A stretch of 52,452 nt of DNA from Escherichia phage EcoM1: sequence record PQ818760.1; one strand, given 5' to 3'. Shown piece by piece: positions 1 through 51,039 of this stretch. How positions within the stretch are numbered: position 1 is the stretch's first letter; the number at the start of each line of letters is the position of its first letter. A model generated the notes under the pieces. The model was not told the DNA's origin and ran no database searches. It was given only the letters and a program-made list of their open reading frames with translations. The translations under genes were made by a program, and so were the position numbers.

Positions 1-1395
1 CTATAGAGTTGAGACTTGTTCATTTGACAGCGCATTGTCCCAAATACGAAGGGACCGTACAGCAAACTCTGCCCTTGTAATGGCAGAAGATTTGGTCCAC
101 GTCGATAGTGTTGGCCGACGGTTGTTGGAATCTATGCCTGGAATACTGTGCCTGGCCACAAGAACACCGTCAACAAATATTCTTGCAGTGGTGTCTGCCA
201 CTGTTACACAAATTCTGGACCATTTCCCGACAGTTGCGACAGCAGGACTAATAACCTTGGGAGTGTTTACAAGGACTCCTGACGGGTTTCGGTATCGCAG
301 AATGACGCCACCGTCAAAACATACGAGAACCTTCAAGGTTTCCATACCAAAGCCAAATTGCCAGTTACCATCCGCACCATCTTGAACAATCTTCGTATAG
401 TCTACACATATCGTGTACCTGGAACCATTCGACAATTGCGTATTGTTGAACCAGTTTATACCCGCAGAACCAACATCAGGAGATACAAAAGCCAGTGCCC
501 CACCAAGAGCCTCATTGTAGGCAGGTTCTGTTGCAAACGTATTGAAAATTCCAGCGCCACGAAGAATGTTTACAGACTTAATAAGCGACATTTCATATGC
601 CGGAAGTTCAACAGCATATCTCGGCTCTTGTGCTGCCTTCACATCTGGGAAGTTTAGTTCCGTAACAATATTAGACTTGCTCGAAGCAGTACCAGTTTCC
701 GCATTCCCTGTGGAATTATTGATGCCGAGGTAGTAGCTCCCATTACGAAGATACAATCCACCGTCATTAACAATCTGTGCAGTCTTAGAATCATTTAAGT
801 ACACAGTCGTGAAGGTTACTTCACCAGTGTATGCCCCACCAGTTACAGGAACAGCACCAACTTGAGTTGCAGTAAGTTTGTGTGGATTGTTGTAATCCGT
901 TACGTGTGCTTGAACCATTGCACGATAGTTGGCAACAATCGAATCAAGTTCGGATTTGTCATATGCACCAATTTGTGCAGCAGTTACTTTGTGCGGGTTT
1001 GTGGTTACATCTGCAATGTGCGCATTGATTGCTGCAACAATTGAGTCGTAATTTGCACGAGAAACTTGAATGGAGCTTGGACTCCACTGTGCAGAGTTCT
1101 CACTTGGGCGTAGTGTTTTGCTAGGGTTGGTGACAGTACAAACATAAATCGTTTTGTTTGTTTCGTCCCAAGCCAAACTACCAACGCCATAACTTACATC
1201 ACTGCCCCACTCAAAGATTCCACGTTCCGCTTGAGCAAGCATAGTGGTGTCAATCTTGTATTGCAGGTAGTTAAGAACCTGGTAAGTTGGTATCTCTGCA
1301 ACCCAGCCCTTGAGATATTTTGCATCGCCTGGGTCACGTCTTGCGACAGAGTTGTTTGAGGTCCAGACTCGGTTCAGTTTAGGACGAATTGCCAT
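1..1395 (-). CDS. tail fiber protein (distal fiber gene)
   Basis: Ends with TAG at window positions 1-3; ATG at 1393-1395 overlaps the upstream stop by 1 nt (track ORF extends to a TTG at 1464). Two NPHK(V/L)TA.Q(I/V)GA fibre-repeat-like motifs; last gene of the baseplate/fiber cluster. Call from context and motif only. Confidence 0.5.
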   Translation of the reverse strand: MAIRPKLNRVWTSNNSVARRDPGDAKYLKGWVAEIPTYQVLNYLQYKIDTTMLAQAERGIFEWGSDVSYGVGSLAWDETNKTIYVCTVTNPSKTLRPSENSAQWSPSSIQVSRANYDSIVAAINAHIADVTTNPHKVTAAQIGAYDKSELDSIVANYRAMVQAHVTDYNNPHKLTATQVGAVPVTGGAYTGEVTFTTVYLNDSKTAQIVNDGGLYLRNGSYYLGINNSTGNAETGTASSKSNIVTELNFPDVKAAQEPRYAVELPAYEMSLIKSVNILRGAGIFNTFATEPAYNEALGGALAFVSPDVGSAGINWFNNTQLSNGSRYTICVDYTKIVQDGADGNWQFGFGMETLKVLVCFDGGVILRYRNPSGVLVNTPKVISPAVATVGKWSRICVTVADTTARIFVDGVLVARHSIPGIDSNNRRPTLSTWTKSSAITRAEFAVRSLRIWDNALSNEQVSTL

Positions 1396-2543
1396 TATGG
1401 CCTCACTAACATTGATTGTTGATATGCGGTAAGAGTTGGGTAACAGGTAATTCTCTCGACCCAAACAGCAGAGGTGAATCCCATGTTTGTCAGTAGGGTT
1501 TCCATTGAAGTGTATCCAGCAGACGGAGCCTTTATGGACCTTGCTGTGATAAGATTTCCACCAGCATCTCTTCCGTACATGACGATTGACGTTGGGCAGG
1601 CAACATCAAAACCTTCGAAGGTTATTGTGTTGTCATCAACTTTAATCCCACCTTTGGGGTGAAATATTGGAGCATCCGACGTATTGATGGTCCACCCACG
1701 AGTTGACATGGCATCGTTGATAGATGTTTTCATGTTCATGTCGAGGTATGGTTGAGGCAGTGCGAACCTGTTTCCCCATCGGATTTGAAATTCCCAGTAA
1801 TTCAGTTCGGTCATCACTGGATATTCTTCACCACCAACTATGCTCCACAGAACATTGCCGAGTGCATCAATGGATAGAATCCTGTTACCTTCGCGCATCT
1901 CAATTCTACCATTTCCTGGGTTCATTCGGATTGAGATGTTTGTTTTAAACTTCATCCCACCAAGCAGTGACACTGGTCCAGAGAACTTACCGCCAGATGT
2001 TGGCAGTGTACCAAGCTGTTGAGGAGTTTCTTGGTGAACACGTCCAGTTTGCAGCTTGTGGTATACAATAGTTCTTGGGTCTGTTTTACTCCCAAAGGCA
2101 TCATCAATGGCAGACTTGTTGTAAGTCTTGTTTACTATAGTATCTACAGTATCCTTGTGTGGGTTGGTTGCAGCCAAGTGCCCATCGTAAATGGACTTCA
2201 AGTTGCTAATGTCATTAAGGTAATCAACCTTCTTAAGATTAAGTACCTCTTCCCAACCTGTGGCAGTATTAACACGAATAACACCATTAAGGGAAGACAC
2301 TGCACCAACCTGGTAGGTCACACTGGAATCAAACTCGGCGATACCACTAAACAAGAGCGAGATAATCTTCAAGTCACTAATCTGCGACAAGAAGTTTTGC
2401 CACTCGTTAGGTGGCTTCTCAACTTCCCAACCTAAGTCGGCATATCTGTTTTCGATAAAACTTGGTGCAGAGGTGTCCAAGTCCGGGTCTTTAACTTCAC
2501 CATCTTGCGCCCAGGGAAAATTAAACTTAAGACGTTGTGTCAT
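1395..2543 (-). CDS. tail fiber protein (proximal fiber gene)
   Basis: 382 aa; ATG overlaps upstream stop at 2543; has an ATNPHKDT motif like the next gene; sits after the J-like and I-like baseplate genes. Confidence 0.45.
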   Translation of the reverse strand: MTQRLKFNFPWAQDGEVKDPDLDTSAPSFIENRYADLGWEVEKPPNEWQNFLSQISDLKIISLLFSGIAEFDSSVTYQVGAVSSLNGVIRVNTATGWEEVLNLKKVDYLNDISNLKSIYDGHLAATNPHKDTVDTIVNKTYNKSAIDDAFGSKTDPRTIVYHKLQTGRVHQETPQQLGTLPTSGGKFSGPVSLLGGMKFKTNISIRMNPGNGRIEMREGNRILSIDALGNVLWSIVGGEEYPVMTELNYWEFQIRWGNRFALPQPYLDMNMKTSINDAMSTRGWTINTSDAPIFHPKGGIKVDDNTITFEGFDVACPTSIVMYGRDAGGNLITARSIKAPSAGYTSMETLLTNMGFTSAVWVERITCYPTLTAYQQSMLVRP

Positions 2544-3184
2544 TATTTCTCCGGAGGATAATCTTTGGAACCATAAACCAAGGCAATATTACCTCCAGCA
2601 TCTCTGAGGGTAATCTTGACACCAACAGGTTTAAAGTTTGGAAGCATGTGCGCCATAAGAACTTTCTCAGGTACAGACAACATTTCATGAACAACATAAT
2701 CCATTGTCTGAAATCCTTCTATGATTTGAAGTTTCAGTTCCCTTCCCACAACCAACTCAATGTACATGATGATTTGTTCGATGGTGCAGTTGCCAGTTAT
2801 CTTAATGATTCGGGCACGTATTGCAGCCTTCAACTGTGCATCTGTTCGAACAAAGTCCCCAGAGTCCCTGTCGTAGTCTGATTTCAGAATACCACCAACA
2901 TTTGGGTTATTGTCATCACCAGCAGAGAATGCACCTGGGTTGGCATAGAAGCCAAAGTACCCAAGTGCTGCGGCACCATGTATTACGCGAGAAGCCCCTA
3001 CAAGATATGCAAGGTCGTCAACCATGATGCCGAATGAGTCTGCTAAGTATCTGTACTTGATTGAGTCAGCCATGGCCTTCTTAACTTCTGCAAACTCTTC
3101 CAAGAAGATGGAGATATATTTGCGTAAGTTTGGTGAAAGTGCATACTGCGAAAGCAGCATGTCTAAGCCATGTTTACCAGCCAT
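2543..3184 (-). CDS. baseplate protein, tail-protein-I-like
   Basis: 213 aa directly downstream of the J-like gene, the position of gpI-type proteins in P2/Mu-like baseplate clusters. Positional inference. Confidence 0.4.
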   Translation of the reverse strand: MAGKHGLDMLLSQYALSPNLRKYISIFLEEFAEVKKAMADSIKYRYLADSFGIMVDDLAYLVGASRVIHGAAALGYFGFYANPGAFSAGDDNNPNVGGILKSDYDRDSGDFVRTDAQLKAAIRARIIKITGNCTIEQIIMYIELVVGRELKLQIIEGFQTMDYVVHEMLSVPEKVLMAHMLPNFKPVGVKITLRDAGGNIALVYGSKDYPPEK

Positions 3185-7904: not shown

Positions 7905-10900
7905 TTATCTTCTTTGTTGCGCACCGTTGTTCATGTTCATCTGTTGAGTCACAGTCTGACCACCAGGAATTGCCACTGTAGCAGAAGCAGTCTGGTTGTT
8001 GACCTTAGCATCAATCTTAACATTAACAACAGTTTGGGTTTGACCGTATGACATTCCATTACGAGTAAACCCTGTAGCACCTTCTTCCAAAGACTGAGAA
8101 GACTTGGACCATTCACGGAATGCTTTGACGCGATTCTGTGCTTGCACGGGAACAGCAGTTAGCCAATCCAACCCATTCTTATCAACAGCTTTGTCAACAG
8201 TGCCAGGACCATCGGTGTAAGCAGCCATTGCCTTTTCGTGGTCGCCATAACGCTTGTACATTGCGTCATAATATTCACGACCAACTCGCGCATCATCTTC
8301 TGGAGTTCCATCAGACGGCTTGATTCCAAATCCTGGGTCACGGGCAGTCGAAGGAAGAATTTGCATTATTCCACGAGCACCAGTGCGACTTGTTACACGA
8401 GAACCATCTTTATTGTATTCACGACCACCGGATTCTTCCTGAGCGATAAAGTCATAAACACTTCCAGCAAACTCACGGGCCTGATTGTATCCAGTACGAG
8501 CACCGTCAAGTGCAGCACTTCCGGCTTCGAAGATTGGAGCACCATTAGATAGGACACTTTGTGGCACGTTGTAGCTAGGCAGCACGCGTGCGCGGCTCCC
8601 CTGCAACATTTCTGACTGAGCCATACCTTCGGCAAAGTCAGAGTTTCTACCCGCTTCTACCACCGAACCAGCTTGCTCATGGCTGTATTCCGTGCGGTCG
8701 TAGGCTCGCGCCATCCCATTCAGGCCAGCCATTTCGGCAGCACCTGCGATACGGGCCTGACTCCAGCCACGCTCCTTGCCCCTTTCCTGCATGATGCGAG
8801 CCAGGGCCACAGGGTCGCCGCCTGTCGCACGAATATCACCTATGGTGAGCAATCCCCTACTGCCGCGAACGATGTTCACAGCGGCGCTGGGGTCGCCGTT
8901 AAGCATGGTGTTGTAGGCACTATGTGTGGTTTGATTCAGACGTGCCGCTTGTTGTGAATTGAGTCCTAACATCTCCAAGCCTTGCGACATGGAAGAATAT
9001 TCATTAGGATTCATAACACCAGCATCAAGCGAGTTGCCGATAAAGTCATTCATGTATTCAGCAGCTTCATTGCCAATCTGAATAGCACCAATGCCTACAG
9101 CAGCCATACGTCCCGCAGGAGTTGCCATCAATGCTTGCATAACTCCGTTGGTTGCTGAACCAATACTGCCGCCAGCAATACCAGCAGCTAATGAACCACC
9201 CATGCGACCGTAGTCATCATAGTAGTTGCCACCACTTGTAAAGTTACCGCCACGACCACCGCCACCGCCAGAATATCCACCGCCATTGGCAGCATCAAAT
9301 CTTTCGCGGTCCCAACCCATTGAGTCGGCTTTGCCATTAAAGTCTGCGTCTGCACCAATACCCTTCTGCCTGTTTTCTTCCTGAGCAGCAAGGATACCTT
9401 TCTTAACAGACAATGCCATCGAGTCATTTCCAGTATCACCGTTTCCTGTGGTTGCTGGAAAGTTTTGCTCGTGCATTACAAAGTTTGGCTGGTAGTCAGA
9501 GTAAGATGCCGTTGGGTTGTACGAAGAGCGTGAACCAATGAATGGGTCTTCTGGAGTTCCAGCAACGGCAGAATAGCCACGAGTGGACCTTTGACGAATA
9601 TCTTTCCAGATTCCATCACCAGTCATTGCACTTCTTGCACCAGAAATCAGTTCTTCACGGTCTAGCCCAGCATTGTTTCTAACAAACTCTCGCCCAGCAT
9701 CAAGACGGCCAAGCACAGAATCAAGACGATTTCGGTTTCTCTCGTACCATCCTTCGTCCTTCTCAATCCATTGTGAACGTGTTTCGTCGTTGATGGTTTG
9801 TGAGAACAAAGCACGAGAACGGCCAGAAACGTGCATACCAAATTGAATTTGGTCCATGTAATCTGGATGGTCGCCTTTAAGAAGGTCGGCAAACTTACCA
9901 GCCCTTTGCGGATTCTTGTGCTCCCAAATGGCATCATCGCCAATAAGGCCATCAGGAGAATACATGAAGGCGGGATAGTTGTCATTTGTTATAGCGCCAG
10001 TTTGTTTGATATCGAATCCAAATTCCTTACCAACACGAGCGCGTGCTTCTTCTTCCGTCCTGTGACCATCAGCGAACATCTTTTTGGTGAAATCGCTGTG
10101 CTCTTTACTACGAGATAAACCAATCTTGTCAATCATTCCCGCCCAAGGTCGGGTATACGGGTTGTTTCCTAAGAAGGTTCCAACAGTTGAGCCAGTTATG
10201 TCATAATTTTTACGGAAGTCTAGCCACTCTTGGCTACCCTGTTCTAAGTCATGGAATCTGACGGGAGACTCGGAACGTCCTGTACCATAGTCGGATACAT
10301 CACGGAATCCAGCACTATCCATGTTTGCAATCGCAATTTCCTCACGACGCATTCTTGCAGAGTTCCAATTAGTGGCCTCTCCAAGTTGTGCTGTAAATTC
10401 TGTAGATGTTGATTGCGAATCTTTTTCGACTCGCTGTGATGCTCCCTTCATCTTTGGAATGCGAACAGGTTCGGCATCCATTTTGTCATAAGTGTTTTCG
10501 AGAATAGCTCGAACACTCGATGCAGAATAAGCTGGTTCATCTGCAAGTTCAGAACGAAGGTTTTCATACCCGCTTCTGGCTTCTTCCAAATCTGTATAGC
10601 GAGTTGCGCTATCCATAATCATGTCACGGTCAGATACTTCGTGACGAGTATTCATCATCCCTTTGGAGCCAGAATAAACTTTGGCAGCAGATTTAACAGC
10701 TTCACTAATGGAAGAATACAAAGCCTTGCTTGGTTCGCTCCAACCTGTGCCACCAGTTAATGATGCAGTGAGGGAGTATTCTGGATTTATGCCGGAACCA
10801 TAAGAACCAAGTGGGAGTCCAGATGCGTTAAGAGGTGCACGAGGATGTGCAATGCCAGAAACAATTGAAGGAGAACCAATCTGAGGAAGTGCATCCATGT

Positions 10901-11630
10901 AAGAAATATGTGGGGCCGATTTATTTCCTACATTAGAGGCCGAGGTATACCCAACTTCCTTAAAGGCTGTGGGTAACTCTTGTTCCAGACGTTTGGCAAC
11001 TCGACTAATGTCTCTTGCGTATTGTTCATGATTGCTGTATTGCTCACGGTCAACATACATGTGAGCCATGTAGTTGTATGAGTCGGCAATGTTTCCACGG
11101 TTGGTGGAGTATTCTGCCATAATATCACCAGCATAATGACCTGGGATTTCTGGCATAATATCTTGATGCCCTTGCAAAGTATCTCGCATGTAGGCATTAA
11201 GCATGTTGAAGCTACCTTGCGGTAAGTTCGGATTTGGCTTTGGCATGTGCATCCACACATCGTCTGTGTTGACACCAAGCCTTTCCATGTATGCGTGAAC
11301 AGCTTCTACATGGTGTGTTGGGCCATTCATTGCTGCATGAAATGCTTCTGTGTAGCCAGCACTTGAAAGCACTTGTGCAATGTGGGCAGCGTCTGAAATC
11401 ATGGAAGAGTCGCCCAAAGATTCAGTAATTAAACTGTCATCTTCAAACGACCCACCCATTAATTCTGCATTTGTATCCAGCCATCCCGAAGCAGCGCTCG
11501 CACTAAGTTGTTGAACCATGTGCGACTTCTTCATACCAGCATGGAAAGTCAGACCGCTTTGAGAGCCTAATGCAATTAACTCATTAACGCTCAACTTCAT
11601 TAAATCTTTTTGATTAGCCATTGTCTTCAT
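7905..11630 (-). CDS. tail tape measure protein with lytic transglycosylase (SLT) domain
   Basis: 1241 aa, largest ORF, downstream of tube and chaperone genes; contains GARGIMQILPSTA...YTDGPG transglycosylase-like segment and a Gly-rich region. Confidence 0.7.
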   Translation of the reverse strand: MKTMANQKDLMKLSVNELIALGSQSGLTFHAGMKKSHMVQQLSASAASGWLDTNAELMGGSFEDDSLITESLGDSSMISDAAHIAQVLSSAGYTEAFHAAMNGPTHHVEAVHAYMERLGVNTDDVWMHMPKPNPNLPQGSFNMLNAYMRDTLQGHQDIMPEIPGHYAGDIMAEYSTNRGNIADSYNYMAHMYVDREQYSNHEQYARDISRVAKRLEQELPTAFKEVGYTSASNVGNKSAPHISYMDALPQIGSPSIVSGIAHPRAPLNASGLPLGSYGSGINPEYSLTASLTGGTGWSEPSKALYSSISEAVKSAAKVYSGSKGMMNTRHEVSDRDMIMDSATRYTDLEEARSGYENLRSELADEPAYSASSVRAILENTYDKMDAEPVRIPKMKGASQRVEKDSQSTSTEFTAQLGEATNWNSARMRREEIAIANMDSAGFRDVSDYGTGRSESPVRFHDLEQGSQEWLDFRKNYDITGSTVGTFLGNNPYTRPWAGMIDKIGLSRSKEHSDFTKKMFADGHRTEEEARARVGKEFGFDIKQTGAITNDNYPAFMYSPDGLIGDDAIWEHKNPQRAGKFADLLKGDHPDYMDQIQFGMHVSGRSRALFSQTINDETRSQWIEKDEGWYERNRNRLDSVLGRLDAGREFVRNNAGLDREELISGARSAMTGDGIWKDIRQRSTRGYSAVAGTPEDPFIGSRSSYNPTASYSDYQPNFVMHEQNFPATTGNGDTGNDSMALSVKKGILAAQEENRQKGIGADADFNGKADSMGWDRERFDAANGGGYSGGGGGRGGNFTSGGNYYDDYGRMGGSLAAGIAGGSIGSATNGVMQALMATPAGRMAAVGIGAIQIGNEAAEYMNDFIGNSLDAGVMNPNEYSSMSQGLEMLGLNSQQAARLNQTTHSAYNTMLNGDPSAAVNIVRGSRGLLTIGDIRATGGDPVALARIMQERGKERGWSQARIAGAAEMAGLNGMARAYDRTEYSHEQAGSVVEAGRNSDFAEGMAQSEMLQGSRARVLPSYNVPQSVLSNGAPIFEAGSAALDGARTGYNQAREFAGSVYDFIAQEESGGREYNKDGSRVTSRTGARGIMQILPSTARDPGFGIKPSDGTPEDDARVGREYYDAMYKRYGDHEKAMAAYTDGPGTVDKAVDKNGLDWLTAVPVQAQNRVKAFREWSKSSQSLEEGATGFTRNGMSYGQTQTVVNVKIDAKVNNQTASATVAIPGGQTVTQQMNMNNGAQQRR

Positions 11631-17758: not shown

Positions 17759-18709
17759 TTATAAAGAGTTGAAGCGTTCTAAACGACGTTTGTTAGCTTC
17801 TTCGGAAATAGAAACTTTAGGTTTACGAGCTTCTGAATCTTTCTTAGCAGCGAATTGCATAGACTGATTCAGGGCATCCCCTAAAGTAATGGAATCGCAA
17901 TCTTCAAGAGCTGCATCGAAACGGGCGGAGATGTAGTCTTCGCTCTTATCGCTGAAATCCTTGTCATGCAATTTATTAACTACAGCCAACTTAATTTCTG
18001 CATCGGTCTTGCCGGAGAAATCGAGGTTGGAGAACTCGTCGCCAAGACGGGCCACATCAACAAGCAGTGCTGTACGAGCAACTACACGTTTGTCTACCTC
18101 AGCCTGAATAGCTTCATCGGATAGTCGTGCAGTTTCTGCATCAGCAAGTTTCTGTTCAAGGGCGCTAATCTTGTCAAGCGCTGCATCACGCTCTGCTTCA
18201 ACAACATCAAAGGTTGCCTTATCAACAATGGCAATCTCTTCACCAGAGTCACCAATGCGAGTAGTCTGAGCACGACCACGAACAACAATTGCAGCATGGT
18301 TAGGGATAATGCGAACTTTATCGAAGTCGGCTTCGTCATCTTCTGACACAGCCAGTTCAGCATTATGGCCCAAGGAGATTTGGTCAACACCAGAATCAAC
18401 TAATCGAATAGCTTGCTCGTCATTCAAAACGATTGATGCAGCCAAGAAAGAACCGTCTGCAACTGGACGCCCTTCGATGAACCCTTTCTGGAGTTCTTTG
18501 TTGTTCTTGATGTTAACATCATTTTTCGGATGGCCGATAGTTACCGGAATTGAACGACAGCCTTCGATGGTTGCTTCGTCAAATAATACTTCCGGCTTGG
18601 TACGAACACGGCAAATAGATTCTGGGTCCAGATGTTTTGCGATTTCACCAAGTTCTTTCGCTTTGTACAGCATAGTGCCAGTACGAGCGATGGTGCATTC
18701 TGCAATCAT
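17759..18709 (-). CDS. head scaffolding / prohead core protein
   Basis: Follows portal; acidic with coiled-coil-like segment (ERDAALDKISALEQKLADAETARL). Track ORF starts at 18919 overlapping portal by 128 nt; reported start is the first ATG past the portal stop; a GTG near 18773 is also possible. Confidence 0.4.
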   Translation of the reverse strand: MIAECTIARTGTMLYKAKELGEIAKHLDPESICRVRTKPEVLFDEATIEGCRSIPVTIGHPKNDVNIKNNKELQKGFIEGRPVADGSFLAASIVLNDEQAIRLVDSGVDQISLGHNAELAVSEDDEADFDKVRIIPNHAAIVVRGRAQTTRIGDSGEEIAIVDKATFDVVEAERDAALDKISALEQKLADAETARLSDEAIQAEVDKRVVARTALLVDVARLGDEFSNLDFSGKTDAEIKLAVVNKLHDKDFSDKSEDYISARFDAALEDCDSITLGDALNQSMQFAAKKDSEARKPKVSISEEANKRRLERFNSL

Positions 18710-18791
18710 TTCGCCAGAGTCACGTAAACGACGGGTCGTTAAAGTAGCCTTGTCGTTCAACAAAACTACTTCATTCACGGTATCTTCGTCG

Positions 18792-20111
18792 TTAAGCTGA
18801 ACCAGGTTTTGGTTTTGCTTCACTTGCGTTACCCTTTTGGATGTTAGGAGGATTAGGATTTGGCTTACCAAGGCCACAAGTCCCGAACACGCCCGAATGG
18901 AACATGACTTCGTTTGCAACTTCAGTAGTTATGGTGCCGTTGTTAACCAGCAGGTCAACAGCGAATGCCAAATCTTTAGCTCGCTTCGCTTTCTCAACAT
19001 TGGATTCAGGGAAGATATCTAACCATTCGTAGTCATATTCTTCAATGCCAAAGTGCGCCTGGACAATCTTGTCTACCACATCTAAACGAGGGTCGAACAC
19101 AGAAGTCTGCAAGCCAGTCAACAAGTCGATATAGTTTACGAGGTCGGATTCGCCCGTAGCATTCATACCGTCTGGAGATGCAGAAAGGAAACGTGTAGCC
19201 GGAATACCAACTGCGGCAGCAACTATCTTTAAGTATTCCCAAATCAAATCTTTCACGCCAGATAGCGCAATTGACTTGGTGTCATACTTCTCAGTATTGT
19301 CGAGAATTAAGACGTTATAAATACTCTTTGCCAGCTTCATAAGTTTGAAGCGCTTCATCACAGCAGCTTCACCTTCCGGTGATGTAAGCAAGGATTGTAA
19401 GCCTTCAACAGTTACCACATCAATTGTGGCTTCTTGGGCAAGGCTGGCAGCAGCAGCGGCAGTTGTGTAGAATTGGTCAATCGTTTTCAGCAGTGGAATA
19501 AGTACCGAATCGGAATACCACATGTTGCGTTGGAATTCGAACAGCGGCAGTTCAGTACCCTCGAACCGAAGAAAGCGAGTGTAGTGGATATAGCCGGGAT
19601 ATCCAGCCAAAGTGTAATACTCTGGCAAACCATAGTGAGGACTTAAAGGGTCCAGAACCATAGTCCCTGCGGCAAATAAGCGTGAGCGGTCAATAACTCT
19701 CATGGATTTAATACATCCAGTCTTCAAGTTATCCAGTCGCAATGGTGTATCAAGTTTGCCCGTACCTTTCAGGTCGAGCAGAACAAATGAAGTACCATAC
19801 AATCTGGCCCATTGATATGCCTCACGGAACAGCTTGCGAATACGAAGTTTCTTATCCGCTCTGCGTCCTTCTTCACTATCAATATGTCGCCACTTACGCG
19901 TCATATCTTGAGGAATGACGGTACACACTTTCTGTGCAACCCAATCCTCACGGAAGCGGTTCATAAGTTCGCGATAGTTCGCGTTCTTGTTTGAGAAAGT
20001 CCACTGGTTGAAAGTAGACTTATCTGCTTGACCGCCTAACCCCGTTACAAGGTTTTCTAACCCATCTGCAACTTTAACAGAGAGATTGTTTTTCTTCTTC
20101 TTGGAAGTCAT
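18792..20111 (-). CDS. portal protein
   Basis: 439 aa immediately downstream of the terminase large subunit and upstream of scaffold/capsid genes. Confidence 0.6.
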   Translation of the reverse strand: MTSKKKKNNLSVKVADGLENLVTGLGGQADKSTFNQWTFSNKNANYRELMNRFREDWVAQKVCTVIPQDMTRKWRHIDSEEGRRADKKLRIRKLFREAYQWARLYGTSFVLLDLKGTGKLDTPLRLDNLKTGCIKSMRVIDRSRLFAAGTMVLDPLSPHYGLPEYYTLAGYPGYIHYTRFLRFEGTELPLFEFQRNMWYSDSVLIPLLKTIDQFYTTAAAAASLAQEATIDVVTVEGLQSLLTSPEGEAAVMKRFKLMKLAKSIYNVLILDNTEKYDTKSIALSGVKDLIWEYLKIVAAAVGIPATRFLSASPDGMNATGESDLVNYIDLLTGLQTSVFDPRLDVVDKIVQAHFGIEEYDYEWLDIFPESNVEKAKRAKDLAFAVDLLVNNGTITTEVANEVMFHSGVFGTCGLGKPNPNPPNIQKGNASEAKPKPGSA

Positions 20112-20335
20112 TATTTCTTCCTTAGAATAGTTCCATTACCCTTAACAATTTGAATGTTGTCGGAGGTGTGGAGTCGCAGATTTGACTCGTGCTTTAACTT
20201 AACACAGTCGCTCTCTGTGGTAGAAACTGCCTCAATCACACATAAAATGTTTCCTTCCAAATCTTGAATCTGGAAGGAGTTGTTCTTGCGTGAGCGGGCA
20301 TCTAAACGAGTGATAACCGCCATATTTACATCCAT
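20111..20335 (-). CDS. hypothetical protein
   Basis: 74 aa ORF overlapping the terminase 3' end and coupled to the portal start. Confidence 0.3.
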   Translation of the reverse strand: MDVNMAVITRLDARSRKNNSFQIQDLEGNILCVIEAVSTTESDCVKLKHESNLRLHTSDNIQIVKGNGTILRKK

Positions 20336-22371
20336 GCGGAGTAGTTGGCACTTGGGCCTGAGAATTCGATTGCAACCATATCTGAAACGTTATCGACACA
20401 ATCGTCGTGTCCAGTACCACTACCCAAAGAAGTGAATCCAAGTATTTCACGTCTAACGTGGTCGATGTGTTCATGACCAGCAGGGAAGAATATTCTCTTT
20501 TGTGAGAAATATGGGATTGCGTTAAGGAATCGAGTTACCTTGTCATTACCATTAATCCCATCACGAGGCAATGGTAAAACTCGGACACTCCCATCTCTGA
20601 TAAATTGTTGGTTCAAGAATTGTCCGGCAGACTTGTCTTCCATGTACAGTGCACGAGGAATACAACCTACACACTTCAAGTCCAACTTGTTGCATTTGTT
20701 CCAGAAGTCGATGATAGCAGTCTTGAGTTCTGGAGTTTCAAACTTACCAAGCATAATATCTAAACAATAAACATCACGCTCTTTAGTCACGCCCCAATGC
20801 TTAAGGACCGAATAATCAGAATAGGACTTGGCAGTTGATGCCGTATCCGCTGTAATAAAGCTTCTGACTATGCGACTTCTGTCGAAAACGTCTGGTTCAT
20901 ACTCTTGCCACCAATCTTCTTTGATAAGGCCGTGGCCTTGTGCAGATGGGTCGCCAGCATACTGTGAATTGTATGTGTATGGGTTAGACTCTTTCATTGC
21001 CTCCAGAGATTCTAAGCTCTTACGTGAAGGCCATAATGCAGACTTCTCTTCCTTCCTGTTCAAATTATACAGAATGGGAATAGCATGAGTGTAGTTCTGC
21101 TTCTTGATTAACTTATCATACCATTCAGCACTTCCAACTCCCTTCTCAATAATCGCTGGGATATTGAGATAGTGGTATTTGTCAGAAGAGCCGCCACGGA
21201 GTATATAACCAACTAAATCCTGGTCGTGAACTCGCTGCATGATGATAACCATTGGTGTACGGGCACACTTAATTTGGTTTCCGTACGAATCAGTTATGCA
21301 ACCATCGTTGGCAAGACGTGACATGAAGGTGTTATCAAATCGGTCGTTGATTTCTGCTCGAACTGTGTCAGAGTAGGCATCTTTAGGTTTGATAACGTCA
21401 TCCACCACGAAACAACCGGAGTATTTTGCAACAAGAAGTCCAGCACCTTTACCAGTTAACTTACCGCCAGTTGGTACTGCGTGCATAACTCCAGCTTTGG
21501 TTGTACCCCAACGTTCAAGAGAACGTTTGTTAGGGTCGATTCTCACCTTCGGGAATATGCGTTGGAACAGTGGGTCCATCATTACAGCACGGATGTAACC
21601 ACTCGATTCAAGAACAACGTCTTCTGCATACGAGGTGATAATGTTATGACTCGATTCATTGTGGCAAAATGAATACAAGGGCAATGCAATACTCATGAGC
21701 TGAGTCTTAGAGTGTCGTGGTGGAATGGTCACTATTAAGCGGTCAATCTCACCGTCAACAACCTTCTGACCAACACTGAATATTACATCGTGAAAGTCTT
21801 GTGCTTGAAATGGAAATCCCATCTGAATATGGAACTGCCATTTACCAAAGGCTTCGAAACTTTTCATCAAGATTTTGCGAACACGTTCTGCAACCTTGGC
21901 AGGGATTACAGTTGGGTCCACGTTATGTGGGTCATGCAGAATCTTGTCTACAAGTTCATCGGTGTTATCATGCTCCGAGTTTGGCTCCTCTAATGTGGAA
22001 CCTGCAACACGGTCAGTAACACCTGCTTGAATACCTTTCTTCAACTCATCTGCATAGGCAGTCGAGTCTTTCTTGTCGCCAGAGCGAAGACGCTCAAGTT
22101 GTGCTCTGAAAACGGAACGCAATACAGCATCGTTTTCAAGACCCTGGCCTTCTAACTCTGCTTGAATTTGTTCTTCATAGCTGTCAACTATTGCAGTATT
22201 TTCTGAAATATATCGACGGAGCAATGGCAAAGATAGAATACAGAATCTTTCTCTTGAGACTTTTAATACGTCACCGTAGTGTTTGGCGAGATACGAGGCT
22301 ACTGTATCATTAAACTCCGGTCCGAGGTCATCAGTCTTTGACATTGATTCGTTCTCTTTGTTTTTAATCAC
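20326..22371 (-). CDS. terminase large subunit
   Basis: 681 aa with Walker-A-like IPPRHSKTQ, Walker-B CFVVDDV, and C-terminal nuclease-like GHDDCVDNVSDM; upstream of portal. Track start is GTG at 22371; first ATG at 22344. Confidence 0.8.
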   Translation of the reverse strand: MIKNKENESMSKTDDLGPEFNDTVASYLAKHYGDVLKVSRERFCILSLPLLRRYISENTAIVDSYEEQIQAELEGQGLENDAVLRSVFRAQLERLRSGDKKDSTAYADELKKGIQAGVTDRVAGSTLEEPNSEHDNTDELVDKILHDPHNVDPTVIPAKVAERVRKILMKSFEAFGKWQFHIQMGFPFQAQDFHDVIFSVGQKVVDGEIDRLIVTIPPRHSKTQLMSIALPLYSFCHNESSHNIITSYAEDVVLESSGYIRAVMMDPLFQRIFPKVRIDPNKRSLERWGTTKAGVMHAVPTGGKLTGKGAGLLVAKYSGCFVVDDVIKPKDAYSDTVRAEINDRFDNTFMSRLANDGCITDSYGNQIKCARTPMVIIMQRVHDQDLVGYILRGGSSDKYHYLNIPAIIEKGVGSAEWYDKLIKKQNYTHAIPILYNLNRKEEKSALWPSRKSLESLEAMKESNPYTYNSQYAGDPSAQGHGLIKEDWWQEYEPDVFDRSRIVRSFITADTASTAKSYSDYSVLKHWGVTKERDVYCLDIMLGKFETPELKTAIIDFWNKCNKLDLKCVGCIPRALYMEDKSAGQFLNQQFIRDGSVRVLPLPRDGINGNDKVTRFLNAIPYFSQKRIFFPAGHEHIDHVRREILGFTSLGSGTGHDDCVDNVSDMVAIEFSGPSANYSAWM

Positions 22372-33244: not shown

Positions 33245-33454
33245 TCACTGTCGGGTAAGTTTCGAACACTTTTGTGCCCACGTTTCATTGTGGACTAAAA
33301 TCTGTGTTTTGGTTTCGCGTGACAGTATTTTCACTTCTGCAACATCCAAATATATTGGTTGTGCAATTAAGCAATAATCACTTACGAACCCACTTTGAGA
33401 GCAACTCACTATCGACATTGCTATCAGAACTGCTAGACACTTCTTTCTGAACAT
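33245..33454 (-). CDS. o-spanin (Rz1-like outer-membrane lipoprotein)
   Basis: 69 aa with lipoprotein signal ending SIVSC (lipobox-like), two further Cys; starts inside the i-spanin gene in another frame and extends beyond it. Confidence 0.5.
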   Translation of the reverse strand: MFRKKCLAVLIAMSIVSCSQSGFVSDYCLIAQPIYLDVAEVKILSRETKTQILVHNETWAQKCSKLTRQ

Positions 33455-33614
33455 GCGATTTAATCTCGATAGATTCTTTTAATGAATCTAGTTGCTTCTC
33501 TTTGGCTTCCTGACGCTCCTCGGCTTTGCCTGAGCTTTTGCCTTTGAGGAACACTGCAATAAGAATACCAAATGCAGTCAGGACGCCAAGAACTATTGAT
33601 TTAAGCTGTTGCAT
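33378..33614 (-). CDS. i-spanin (Rz-like)
   Basis: 78 aa: N-terminal transmembrane helix (IVLGVLTAFGILIAVFL) followed by a charged coiled-coil-like region; overlapped by the o-spanin frame. Confidence 0.55.
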   Translation of the reverse strand: MQQLKSIVLGVLTAFGILIAVFLKGKSSGKAEERQEAKEKQLDSLKESIEIKSHVQKEVSSSSDSNVDSELLSKWVRK

Positions 33615-37422: not shown

Positions 37423-37452
37423 TTGACACTCATTTGGCGATAAGTGTATAAT
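37423..37452 (+). promoter_or_regulatory. consensus sigma70-type promoter, plus strand (antisense to genes)
   Basis: TTGACA (37423-37428), 18-bp spacer, TATAAT (37447-37452); preceded by a 45-nt A/T-rich tract (37376-37420) resembling an UP element. Coordinates anchored on the ORF ending at 37488. Confidence 0.5.
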
Positions 37453-38629: not shown

Positions 38630-39046
38630 TTATGCTGGAAGTTCGAAGTGCGGCATATCAATCAGCTTCTTCTTACCTGGTGCAAGTGGCGGATACGGCT
38701 GATTTTCATCAATACGGCTCCAATTCCCACCCCAACGAATGGTAATTCCAAGCTCTTTTGCAGCTTTGAACATATGGTGAGCTAAAACTTTGAATCGTTC
38801 GAGGTCATTCCAGTCAATTGGATATGGTGCAATGTCTAAAGCATTGCCTGACATGTGTCGGCTAACTGAAACTTTGGTTGCACCTTGCTTTAAAAGCTCT
38901 TGTTGACGCTCGTAGGTGCGCAAACCTTCGAGAACAGTTACATCAAACGGCATTGTTTCACATGCACGCTTGAAAACTGCCACCAATGAAGGGTTTACGC
39001 CCTTTAATCGGTCAAGAGAACGTTGGCCCAGCTTAACATTAGACAT
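38630..39046 (-). CDS. endolysin, peptidase M15 family (L-alanyl-D-glutamate peptidase-like)
   Basis: 138 aa with SRHMSGNALDI, DWNDLE and DMPHFE motifs, matching the zinc-binding H..D...H arrangement and the size of T5-type endolysins. Confidence 0.8.
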   Translation of the reverse strand: MSNVKLGQRSLDRLKGVNPSLVAVFKRACETMPFDVTVLEGLRTYERQQELLKQGATKVSVSRHMSGNALDIAPYPIDWNDLERFKVLAHHMFKAAKELGITIRWGGNWSRIDENQPYPPLAPGKKKLIDMPHFELPA

Positions 39047-39308
39047 TTTTCAGCTCCTGGTCCAGAGTTTCTTGCAATGTTACGAGCAAGTTCTCAAGTG
39101 TTTCCACACGCTTTTCCAATTCAGCAAGACGGTCTTCCTGAATCTTAATAAACTGTGCACGATTCATTGAAAACCAGACATTATCTGTAAATAGCTGGAT
39201 TTCTTCGGACGTTGAACCTTGCCCTTTCAGTGTTTCAACACGTTCTGAGTGAGTTGCAAGCTCTCGTTTTGCTGCCTTAAGTTGGTCAGCCAGTTCTTCA
39301 ACTTTCAC
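39039..39308 (-). CDS. coiled-coil protein
   Basis: 89 aa, heptad-rich (LAELEKRVETLENLLVTLQETL). Confidence 0.4.
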   Translation of the reverse strand: MKVEELADQLKAAKRELATHSERVETLKGQGSTSEEIQLFTDNVWFSMNRAQFIKIQEDRLAELEKRVETLENLLVTLQETLDQELKNV

Positions 39309-39878: not shown

Positions 39879-40066
39879 GGAATTAGTGCCTCTGAATAAT
39901 TTTAGATACAGTATGTAGCTTACCTTTATAAAGAATTGCACACCCAACTGTAATAAATTGTTTATTAAGTGTTGAAATTGGCTCGTCAACACCTTCAAGA
40001 TAAATATCCCACATAAATCCTCCAATAATTAATCGAGGCCACTCGAAGTGGAATGACCTCTGTTAA

Positions 40067-41466: not shown

Positions 41467-41539
41467 GATTAAGATTCTCTTAAGTTAATTACAGTTTAAG
41501 TTTCAGCGACATTGCTAACCACGGAATAGCTTTGTCTCT

Positions 41540-41557
41540 CACATCCAACTAATGTTA
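41540..41557 (-). promoter_or_regulatory. phage promoter-like element
   Basis: + strand cacatccaactaatgtta, 74 nt upstream of the ATG at 41466. Confidence 0.4.
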
Positions 41558-49384: not shown

Positions 49385-50485
49385 TCATAATTCAAATCCA
49401 CCTAGAGCATTGGTATCCACTTCGGAGTCAATCTGCCCGACAAGGTACGAACTAATCTCCGTTTCCTGCGGAGCAACCTGTACAGCATCCGAATTCAACC
49501 ATGCGTTAATCCACGGAATCGGGTTAGTAGCACCTTTGAATGGAGCATCTAATCCAACTGCTTGCATACGAATATTCGTGATATATTCCACATATCCGCA
49601 CAGAATTTGCTTGTTTAAGCCAATCATTGAGCCATCTTTGAACAGATAATCAGCCCAATCTTTCTCTTGTTGGGCCACATTTTCGAACATTTCTTGGCAT
49701 TCTTGACGGCATTCTTTAGCAATTTCGGCCATTTCTGGGTCATCAACACCACTTGCAAGAAGGTTCAGCATGTGTTGAGTTCCGGTCAAATGGAGTGCTT
49801 CATCACGAGCAATTAAGCGAATAATCTTGGCATTTCCTTCCATTAACTTGCGTTCAGCGAAGGCAAATGAGCAAGCAAAGCTGACATAAAAGCGGATTGC
49901 TTCCAGTGCATTGATAGACATGAGGCATAAATACAGCTTCTTCTTAAGCTCACGAAGAGAAACTTTATCTTCATGCAGATGCCACATGGAAGTTAGATGT
50001 TGAAGCTCGTCATAATATTGGGAGATGCCAATTGCACGCATTTTAATATGCTCATTCTCCACAATTTCATCGAAAATTGCGCTTGGGTCTGTCACGATAT
50101 TACGAATAATATGCGTGTAAGAACGAGAATGAATTGTCTCTGAGAATGACCAAGTTTCAATCCAAGTTTCAAGCTCAGGAATGCTCACAATTGGTAGCAA
50201 AACTGTAGTTGGTCCGCGTCCTTGAATAGAATCAAGCAGGATTTGGTATCGTAAATTGCTGGTGAAAATGTGTTTCTCACACTCAGGAAGACCAGCATAG
50301 TCAATTCGGTCCTGGCTAACATCAACCTCCTCAGGTCGCCAAAAGAAAGACAACTGCTTCTCGATTAACTTCTCGAAGATGCTGTACTTCTGTTGGTCAT
50401 ATCGAGCAACGTTAACGTTCTGACCAAAGAACATTGGCTCTAGTAGTTGGTTATTCTTGGTTTGTGAAAAGGTAGTGTAAGCCAT
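49385..50485 (-). CDS. nrdB: ribonucleotide reductase class Ia beta subunit
   Basis: [15 protein letters not shown] with the E-x2-H-x3-Y iron/tyrosyl-radical arrangement, a second carboxylate-His site (RDEALH), and upstream Asp/Glu ligands; 366 aa. Confidence 0.9.
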
Positions 50486-51039
50486 TACAGATTTCCTAGA
50501 TACTCATAGAATTTATGGCCACCATAACGTCCCAAACCTTTTACATTCTTGAAGTTACACTTCTCCGATGCTGTACAAAAGTGGGTTGCTTTGGTGACAG
50601 AGGGTTGATTAAATAATACAAAAGAGATTGCAACATTAATGGTGTCCAGAACTTGTTGTTGTTCTGTGGCATAATTAATCTTTGCTACATGCTTCCATTG
50701 AGCATTCTTCTTCTTTGCTTCTCGTGTCCATGCAAATTGATTGCGTTGATAGACAACATCACAAACGGTGTTAGCGAATGGCTTCCCGAACTCTGTTCTA
50801 TTGCGGACGACATTAGCTACCAGAATCTTTCCATGTTTGTCTTCTCCGCGAGCCTCATACCAGATAACTTTAGTGTAGCATTCTAGCTCTTTGCGTTGTG
50901 AAGAAGATAGTTTCAGACTTCCATTTAAATAAGAATGACTTGCAAAATCTGTAATAGCAGAATTCACTGCCCCAACCGAAGCTGGGGCGTTGATGTGAAC
51001 TAAAGCTGTCAGAAGTGCAAGAACTTTGAATGATAGCAT
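50485..51039 (-). CDS. secreted cell-wall hydrolase, CwlJ/SleB-like
   Basis: N-terminal signal peptide ([24 protein letters not shown]) then [24 protein letters not shown] and [11 protein letters not shown], matching the CwlJ/SleB catalytic-domain signature; immediately downstream of the holin. Confidence 0.7.

Follow-up and report, generated by a model that had tools for sequence, protein, structure and literature searches.

Escherichia phage EcoM1 (PQ818760.1) carries an intact gene whose 138-aa product is predicted, from its family profile and modelled fold, to be a soluble zinc-dependent L-alanyl-D-glutamate endopeptidase of the M15C (EndoT5/EndoRB49/ChiX) type. The gene lies apart from the holin, which has a different muralytic enzyme as its neighbour. 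The phage probably lyses its host by means of a holin-released canonical M15C endolysin, an exported SleB-like enzyme and a two-component spanin, and it is most likely that both hydrolases act in lysis, with the M15 protein as the cytoplasmic endolysin. The window referred to below is the whole 52,452-nt stretch of EcoM1 DNA that was analysed; coordinates are given in Table 1.

Table 1. Positions of lysis-related genes and of transcription and translation signals in the EcoM1 window
Feature	Position	Strand	Basis or remark
M15C (Peptidase_M15_4) L-alanyl-D-glutamate endopeptidase-type endolysin, 138 aa (predicted)	38630..39046	-	profile, alignment, model
Shine-Dalgarno AGGAGC of the M15 gene	39053..39058	-	read from sequence
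Class I (lambda S family) holin, 113 aa	51057..51398	-	Phage_holin_3_1, phrog_126
Exported Hydrolase_2 (SleB/CwlJ-like) muralytic enzyme, 184 aa (predicted)	50485..51039	-	Pfam Hydrolase_2 58.5 bits
i-spanin, 78 aa, N-terminal TMD then charged region	33378..33614	-	phrog_1026 3e-20
o-spanin, 69 aa, lipobox IVSC18	33245..33454	-	lipobox scan; phrog_1275 1e-17
SLT lytic transglycosylase domain (aa 1059-1152) of tape measure protein	8175..8456	-	Pfam SLT 49.8 bits
Copies of CATTAGTTGGATGTGAA, 5′ ends	7872, 27491, 35215, 37352, 37493, 41554, 45546, 46461, 46723, 48767	-	putative promoter motif
Nearest CATTAGTTGGATGTGAA copy upstream of the M15 gene, just before ssb	41538..41554	-	next copies 37493/37352

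The original prediction had described a protein with zinc-binding H..D...H motifs and the length of the T5-type L-alanyl-D-glutamate peptidases, and both points hold. In an alignment of 58 homologues H64, D71, D130, H133 and E135 are invariant and W109 is conserved in at least 90%; the length of 138 aa compares with 137 aa for EndoT5. The zinc ligands H64/D71/H133 (H-x6-D ... H), D130 of the D-x-x-H motif, E135 and W109 align with their counterparts in a T5-like Lys, and the roles of the zinc-binding, catalytic Asp and Trp residues in M15C enzymes have been described (PMC10487532). A Peptidase_M15 profile search gives 35.7 bits with Pfam Peptidase_M15_4, above the cut-off of 25, and the protein matches phrog_465 ‘endolysin’ at 8e-55. 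Among solved structures, a PDB sequence search finds the RB49 L-Ala-D-Glu peptidase (23ri, 5e-24), LysECD7 (8q2g, 1e-23), EndoT5 (2mxz, 5e-20) and ChiX (5opz, 2e-17). An AlphaFold2 model built on the 58-homologue alignment has a mean pLDDT of 94.9, and Foldseek places ChiX 5opz at the top (TM 0.76–0.79, rmsd 1.5 A), followed by the RB49, LysECD7, T5, Ply500 and LysB4 endolysins and then by VanY/LdcB-type enzymes; E values range from 3e-11 to 2e-5 across 5opz, 23ri, 8q2g, 2mxz and 2vo9. Cleavage at the L-Ala/D-Glu bond is the specificity predicted for this protein. A Kyte–Doolittle scan of the protein finds no hydrophobic segment and the N-terminus is hydrophilic, which indicates that there is no signal sequence or SAR domain.

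The open reading frame begins with ATG and occupies exactly the interval in Table 1, and the identical Shine-Dalgarno sequence is listed for ST32 ORF24 (PMC6266442). The start codon (39044–39046) overlaps the stop codon (39039–41) of an upstream ORF for an 89-aa coiled-coil protein, with an overlap of 8 nt, and this arrangement suggests translational coupling of the two. The orthologue in Escherichia phage ST32, gp24 (YP_009790684.1), is 138 aa long, has the same neighbours and shows 100% amino-acid identity; 18 of the 417 nt differ and all 18 changes are synonymous. Judged by these substitutions, the gene is functional and under purifying selection, not a chance ORF.

ST32 belongs to the Chaseviridae (Cleopatravirinae; Carltongylesvirus), and the EcoM1 window is likewise a Carltongylesvirus genome; every gene is on the minus strand and gene order is that of ST32, gene for gene. 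The 3-kb stretch around the M15 gene is 95% identical to ST32 and 83–93% identical to about 40 other phages. One Carltongylesvirus record, PP952070.1, is entered as ‘Staphylococcus phage Pel53’ (host S. hyicus) and is 88% identical, with M15 at 97.8% and Hydrolase_2 at 96.7%; the host label is doubtful, since the phage carries Gram-negative spanin-type lysis genes. A 95-bp tRNA-Arg, common to GJ1, is described for ST32 (PMC6266442); ARAGORN finds no tRNA in the whole EcoM1 window, and Proteus phage Myduc has an annotated tRNA-Arg directly after its spanin genes.

The M15 gene and the two-hydrolase layout are already known, through annotation and in print for the sister phage SKA49. The M15 orthologues of SKA49, SA91KD and DE15 are 138 aa long, have the same neighbouring genes and are 99.3% identical in amino-acid sequence to that of EcoM1, and the ST32 protein was included in the M15_C alignment of Mikoulinskaia et al. 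(PMC10487532). The SKA49 paper speaks of ‘two distinct types of endolysins’ (PMC10282059), and the CPT annotation of Mangalitsa lists an ‘L-alanyl-D-glutamate peptidase’, a ‘SAR endolysin’ and a ‘holin class I’. Hydrolase_2 is annotated as a SAR endolysin in Mangalitsa, DE15 and 4HA13, and the PP101 paper takes the lysis module to be holin and SAR endolysin only (PMC6989608). The record of ST32 labels both gp24 and gp78 ‘endolysin’. The earlier remark that the true lysis enzyme was not settled is fair. A literature search found no experiment on any Chaseviridae M15 protein or on SleB-like endolysins of Gram-negative phages; the ST32 paper contains no proteomics or promoter data, and no published virion proteome was found for Carltongylesvirus. 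A paper on the endolysin of Pantoea phage PA1 (PMC11538084) was considered as evidence for Chaseviridae and set aside: the enzyme is a 217-aa lysozyme, and its relatives include that of ECML-117, a Wifcevirus whose 66.8-kb genome is laid out differently.

The M15 gene is itself a mosaic. Other Carltongylesviruses have, at the same locus, an M15 protein of the GJ1/Mangalitsa type, 131–132 aa in length, with residues 1–84 essentially identical; in the ST32 type the loop from W109 to D130 is longer by 6 aa. The breakpoint is near aa 85–90, and DNA identity to Mangalitsa falls from 97% to 25% over aa 107–126. The C-terminal part (aa 85–138, positions 38630–38790), including the loop before D130, is of a different lineage from the GJ1/Mangalitsa allele. 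The junction matches the recombination hotspot placed at aa 81/82 of the M15 protein in the SKA49 paper (PMC10282059). Allele sharing of Hydrolase_2 runs opposite to that of M15 among the same phages: GJ1 is 80% identical to EcoM1 in M15 and 97% in Hydrolase_2, and TH25 is 99% and 75% identical, respectively.

The EcoM1 holin scores 33.3 bits with Pfam Phage_holin_3_1 (cut-off 23.8) and 1e-17 with phrog_126. It has about three TMDs and a basic C-terminal tail, and its gene differs from that of ST32 by 21 synonymous and 0 non-synonymous changes. Phage_holin_3_1 is the lambda S family of large-hole holins, the type that releases soluble endolysins, and the presence of such a holin in the genome favours a holin-released M15 enzyme. 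The CwlJ/SleB-like enzyme of the original prediction is present next to it. This Hydrolase_2 protein has an N-terminal signal-like sequence, a Y-E-A-R-G-E motif and four conserved Cys; its family assignment rests on Pfam, and a PDB sequence search returns a sole marginal match, the SleB catalytic domain 4f55 (E 0.008). For a SAR endolysin the feature sought was an N-terminal TMD of about 20 residues that is weakly hydrophobic, rich in Gly/Ala and not cleaved off. Across 43 homologues of the EcoM1 protein, the N-terminus has a short hydrophobic core (about 10–13 residues) followed by conserved small-x-small (AxA-like) motifs (APASVGA, ALASAGA, HALA, SHA), and the four Cys are conserved in the mature part, which fits a periplasmic protein. 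The N-terminal sequence may be a cleavable Sec signal peptide, which it resembles more than it does a SAR anchor.

The spanin genes form a third locus, with the o-spanin gene overlapping the end of the i-spanin gene (the pair spans 33245–33614). Both phrog_1026 and phrog_1275 are Rz-like spanin PHROGs, the syntenic genes of phage Myduc are annotated as putative i-/o-spanin, and a spanin survey places phiEcoM-GJ1 among the phages with two-component spanins (PMC6139136).

An SLT domain in the tape measure protein (1241 aa; gene 7905–11630, minus strand) had also been predicted and is there. Together with M15 and Hydrolase_2 it makes up the three muralytic domains that had been counted as different peptidoglycan-degrading activities; that count stands, but the SLT domain is a virion-borne entry enzyme and not a competitor for lysis from within. 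The same consideration bears on the suggestion that virions contain the M15 protein, which would aid DNA entry by local digestion of the wall. Small muralytic enzymes are sometimes virion-associated, but the M15 gene is outside the structural module and the tape measure protein already supplies an entry domain, and we regard a virion role as highly improbable. The tape measure protein also contains, at aa 468–604 (9819–10229, minus strand), a YqaJ-like viral recombinase/exonuclease domain (Pfam, 51.3 bits, E 2e-13), an unusual passenger in a protein of this kind.

Lysis-type genes are thus spread over three separate loci (M15; holin and Hydrolase_2; spanins). The unlinked position of the M15 gene, 12 kb from the holin, was correctly noted from the outset: the spacing is 12.0 kb in window coordinates. 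This path crosses the inferred genome ends. The first position of the window falls within a tail-fibre gene, and the window therefore represents a circularly permuted genome. In Mangalitsa a 3.2-kb direct terminal repeat starts a short way upstream of the RNA polymerase gene; if EcoM1 is built likewise, its physical left end would be near window position 48.9 kb, and the holin, Hydrolase_2 and nrdB (51.4–49.4 kb) would then be the last genes, at the right end. On such a linear virion map, the left end would be about 10 kb from the M15 gene and about 50 kb from the holin, and the two genes would be about 40 kb apart. The NrdB gene (class Ia ribonucleotide reductase small subunit; 49385–50485, minus strand) follows holin and Hydrolase_2 directly. 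The ST32 annotation has no gene for the large subunit of ribonucleotide reductase, and Spp001, of the Nefertitivirinae, encodes both subunits, alpha and beta.

Distance from the holin, both in the window and on the inferred map, speaks against a cassette model for the M15 gene. It should be kept in mind that holin linkage is usual for canonical endolysins but is not required, as T4 e and T7 3.5 illustrate.

The transcriptional setting was approached through a 17-nt motif, CATTAGTTGGATGTGAA, which occurs in 10 copies with at most three mismatches, all of them on the coding strand and most of them between genes, against 0.34 copies expected. One copy is upstream of the RNA polymerase gene itself, and the positions are conserved in ST32, Mangalitsa and Suwonvirus PP101; in the PP101 paper eight promoters for the phage RNA polymerase are proposed (PMC6989608). 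The motif is probably the promoter of the phage single-subunit RNA polymerase. Since no copy is found between 41554 and 37493, the M15 gene lies in the ssb–ardA transcription block. From the placement of the motif, the gene would probably belong to a middle, DNA-metabolism class transcribed by the phage polymerase, as does T7 gene 3.5. The gene had been assigned to an early gene array; its unlinked position stands, and its class is better read as that of the ssb-to-ardA block, probably middle. A scan of 32.5–49.5 kb for sigma-70 promoters and terminators gave counts not above those of shuffled sequence (33 vs 37.2 and 16 vs 13.3, respectively), and these counts give no assignment of the M15 gene to a host-polymerase class.

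Two other signals were seen in this part of the genome. The window's only perfect sigma-70 consensus, TTGACA-N18-TATAAT, is at 37423–37452 on the plus strand. It is antisense to every gene, is in an ORF-free gap (36.7–37.5 kb) and points toward ardA and M15; the 12/12 match is conserved at the corresponding place in ST32, in Mangalitsa and even in Suwonvirus PP101. An Rfam scan of 36.5–39.2 kb gave no match. The promoter could drive an antisense or regulatory RNA, or it could be an origin-activating promoter. The second signal is a hairpin with a 10-bp stem at 40035–40060 (minus strand), between the homologues of gp20 and gp21 and upstream of the block that contains M15. It might be a terminator, an attenuator or a processing site; its tail is not T-rich.

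The location of the M15 gene between ssb and primase/helicase, a T7-gp3.5-like position, in a phage with a single-subunit RNA polymerase raises the question of whether the protein moonlights like T7 lysozyme, i.e. binds and tunes the T7-like phage polymerase with wall hydrolysis as a secondary activity. T7 lysozyme, an N-acetylmuramoyl-L-alanine amidase, belongs to another family than M15C, and the EcoM1 model has the M15C fold (ChiX/EndoT5), not that of a T7-lysozyme-type amidase. In addition, an unrelated CHAP enzyme fills the slot in Suwonvirus, and in two Nefertitivirinae genomes the peptidase is in a late cassette with the same polymerase present. Swaps and relocation of this kind would not leave a specific polymerase-binding surface intact, and there is very little likelihood that the M15 protein acts in this way.

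Comparison of related phages provides the evidence on how the two hydrolases belong together. The Cleopatravirinae were defined as phage records with an RNA polymerase at least 60% identical to that of EcoM1 (n = 80). A Hydrolase_2 homologue is present in all 80 records (by organism count) and is adjacent to the holin in 80/80, while M15 at 60% identity or above is found in 72, the exceptions being eight records of Suwonvirus and Myducvirus. Two genes upstream of ardA, Suwonvirus PP101 encodes a 158-aa hydrolase that has a CHAP domain and lacks a signal sequence, and Myduc has a 121-aa M15_3-type peptidase in the early region. In both Nefertitivirinae genomes examined (pAh6-C and Spp001), a small gene of the M15 superfamily is immediately upstream of Hydrolase_2, in a cassette that follows the tail-fibre genes. 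The M15 score is marginal for gp30 of the pAh6-C pair gp30/gp31 (24.4 bits, against a Pfam cut-off of 25); the Spp001 pair, Spp001_63/_62, has M15_3 at 39.6 bits. Presence of the peptidase inside a late cassette in these two genomes ties it to lysis. On the basis of these matches, every Chaseviridae genome examined encodes a cytoplasmic stem-peptide hydrolase together with an exported SleB-like enzyme, the peptidase partner being replaceable (M15_4, M15_3 or CHAP). Phages of the T5-like group also carry both, with the M15 Lys adjoining the holin and a Hydrolase_2 with a signal peptide elsewhere; IrmaTschudi, VEc33 and Kenya-K38 are in both the M15 and the Hydrolase_2 match lists.

The Nefertitivirinae cassettes (18519–20567 of the pAh6-C stretch examined and 1077–3094 of that of Spp001) have three small unannotated ORFs that separate the tail-fibre gene from M15/Hydrolase_2. 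At least two of the three, gp28 and gp29 of pAh6-C, have hydrophobic stretches, and the small ORFs of both phages show no Pfam family match. They are likely candidates for holins or spanins.

The same comparison supplies the main case against the M15 protein as an endolysin. Hydrolase_2, not M15, is the constant neighbour of the holin throughout the Cleopatravirinae, it is constant in the family while the peptidase is swapped, and two groups (CPT and the PP101 authors) take holin plus Hydrolase_2 as the lysis module and name the enzyme a SAR endolysin. Hydrolase_2 might then be the sole true endolysin, SAR-type or secreted, with the M15 protein in a non-lytic, earlier role such as local peptidoglycan remodelling, superinfection exclusion or recycling; the presence of the M15 gene among replication-phase genes agrees with this. 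We nevertheless consider it unlikely. Without a signal sequence, the M15 protein has no access to the wall until the holin fires, which makes a periplasmic function early in infection difficult to envisage. Also weighing against it are the late lysis cassettes of the two Nefertitivirinae genomes, where the peptidase is included, and the T5-like homologue, which is a holin-linked endolysin. Moreover, unlinked endolysins expressed before the late genes are common, T4 e and T7 3.5 being examples.

The preferred reading, in which both hydrolases act in lysis, can be set out as follows. The M15 gene would be transcribed, probably with ssb and ardA, from a promoter of the phage polymerase, and the protein, having no export signal, would build up in the cytoplasm without harm. 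Late in infection, large holes made in the inner membrane by the lambda-S-type holin would let the M15 protein through to the sacculus, where it would cut stem peptides between L-Ala and D-Glu. Alongside it, the Sec-exported SleB-like Hydrolase_2, whose gene is beside that of the holin, would attack the glycan strands, and the overlapping i-/o-spanin pair would then disrupt the outer membrane. The bond specificity and timing of M15, its dependence on the holin and the division of labour with Hydrolase_2 are what we infer.

A stricter form of cooperation can also be envisaged. Spore enzymes of the Hydrolase_2 family need peptide-free muramic-delta-lactam glycan. A signal-less stem-peptide hydrolase such as M15 and a pre-exported Hydrolase_2 might form an obligate two-step lysis pair in which the peptidase creates the substrate of Hydrolase_2: the latter would remain inert in the periplasm until the holin-released peptidase trims the stem peptides. 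We think that an obligate order is rather improbable. If true, it would explain why the Chaseviridae genomes examined and the T5-like phages keep both enzymes, how a lysin can be exported without premature lysis, and why the peptidase is freely swapped (M15_4, M15_3, CHAP) beside a constant Hydrolase_2.

Taken alone, the M15 gene offers little that is new, as it is a correctly recognized member of a well-studied endolysin family. The remaining interest is in why the Chaseviridae and T5-like phages keep both enzymes, and whether these act redundantly, additively or sequentially. The answer would refine the holin–endolysin–spanin model for Gram-negative phages and would guide the choice of enzyme for antibacterial development.

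Among known enzymes, EndoT5 (phage T5 Lys; 2mxz/8p3a) is of the same family as the EcoM1 protein and has the same zinc triad, catalytic Asp and conserved Trp. Both are of the single-domain globular type with about 38% identity, and T5 is likewise a phage of Gram-negative bacteria. The T5-like lys gene is immediately downstream of the holin, whereas the EcoM1 holin is at the other genome end. The residue before the conserved Trp is Asn in EcoM1 and Asp in T5, and so the Ca2+ regulation described for the T5 endolysin (PMC10487532) may be absent from the EcoM1 enzyme. The homologues of T5 and RB49 are proven endolysins (PMC10487532). EndoRB49 (23ri) and LysECD7 (8q2g), the best sequence matches among solved structures, are about 36% and 30% identical to EcoM1 M15 by structural alignment and have a shorter C-terminal loop. 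Both are soluble endolysins with no lysis-cassette linkage in T4-like genomes. The best structural match, ChiX of Serratia marcescens (5opz; 33% identity), is an L-Ala-D-Glu endopeptidase and needs a holin-like partner; unlike a phage lysis enzyme, it is a bacterial secretion accessory for chitinases. With T7 gp3.5 the analogy is one of position only, a wall hydrolase gene between ssb and replication genes and far from the holin, as gp3.5 is of an unrelated amidase family and has a polymerase-regulating role, while the EcoM1 fold is of the M15C type. T7 is a phage with a single-subunit RNA polymerase in which the holin follows the tail-fibre gene.
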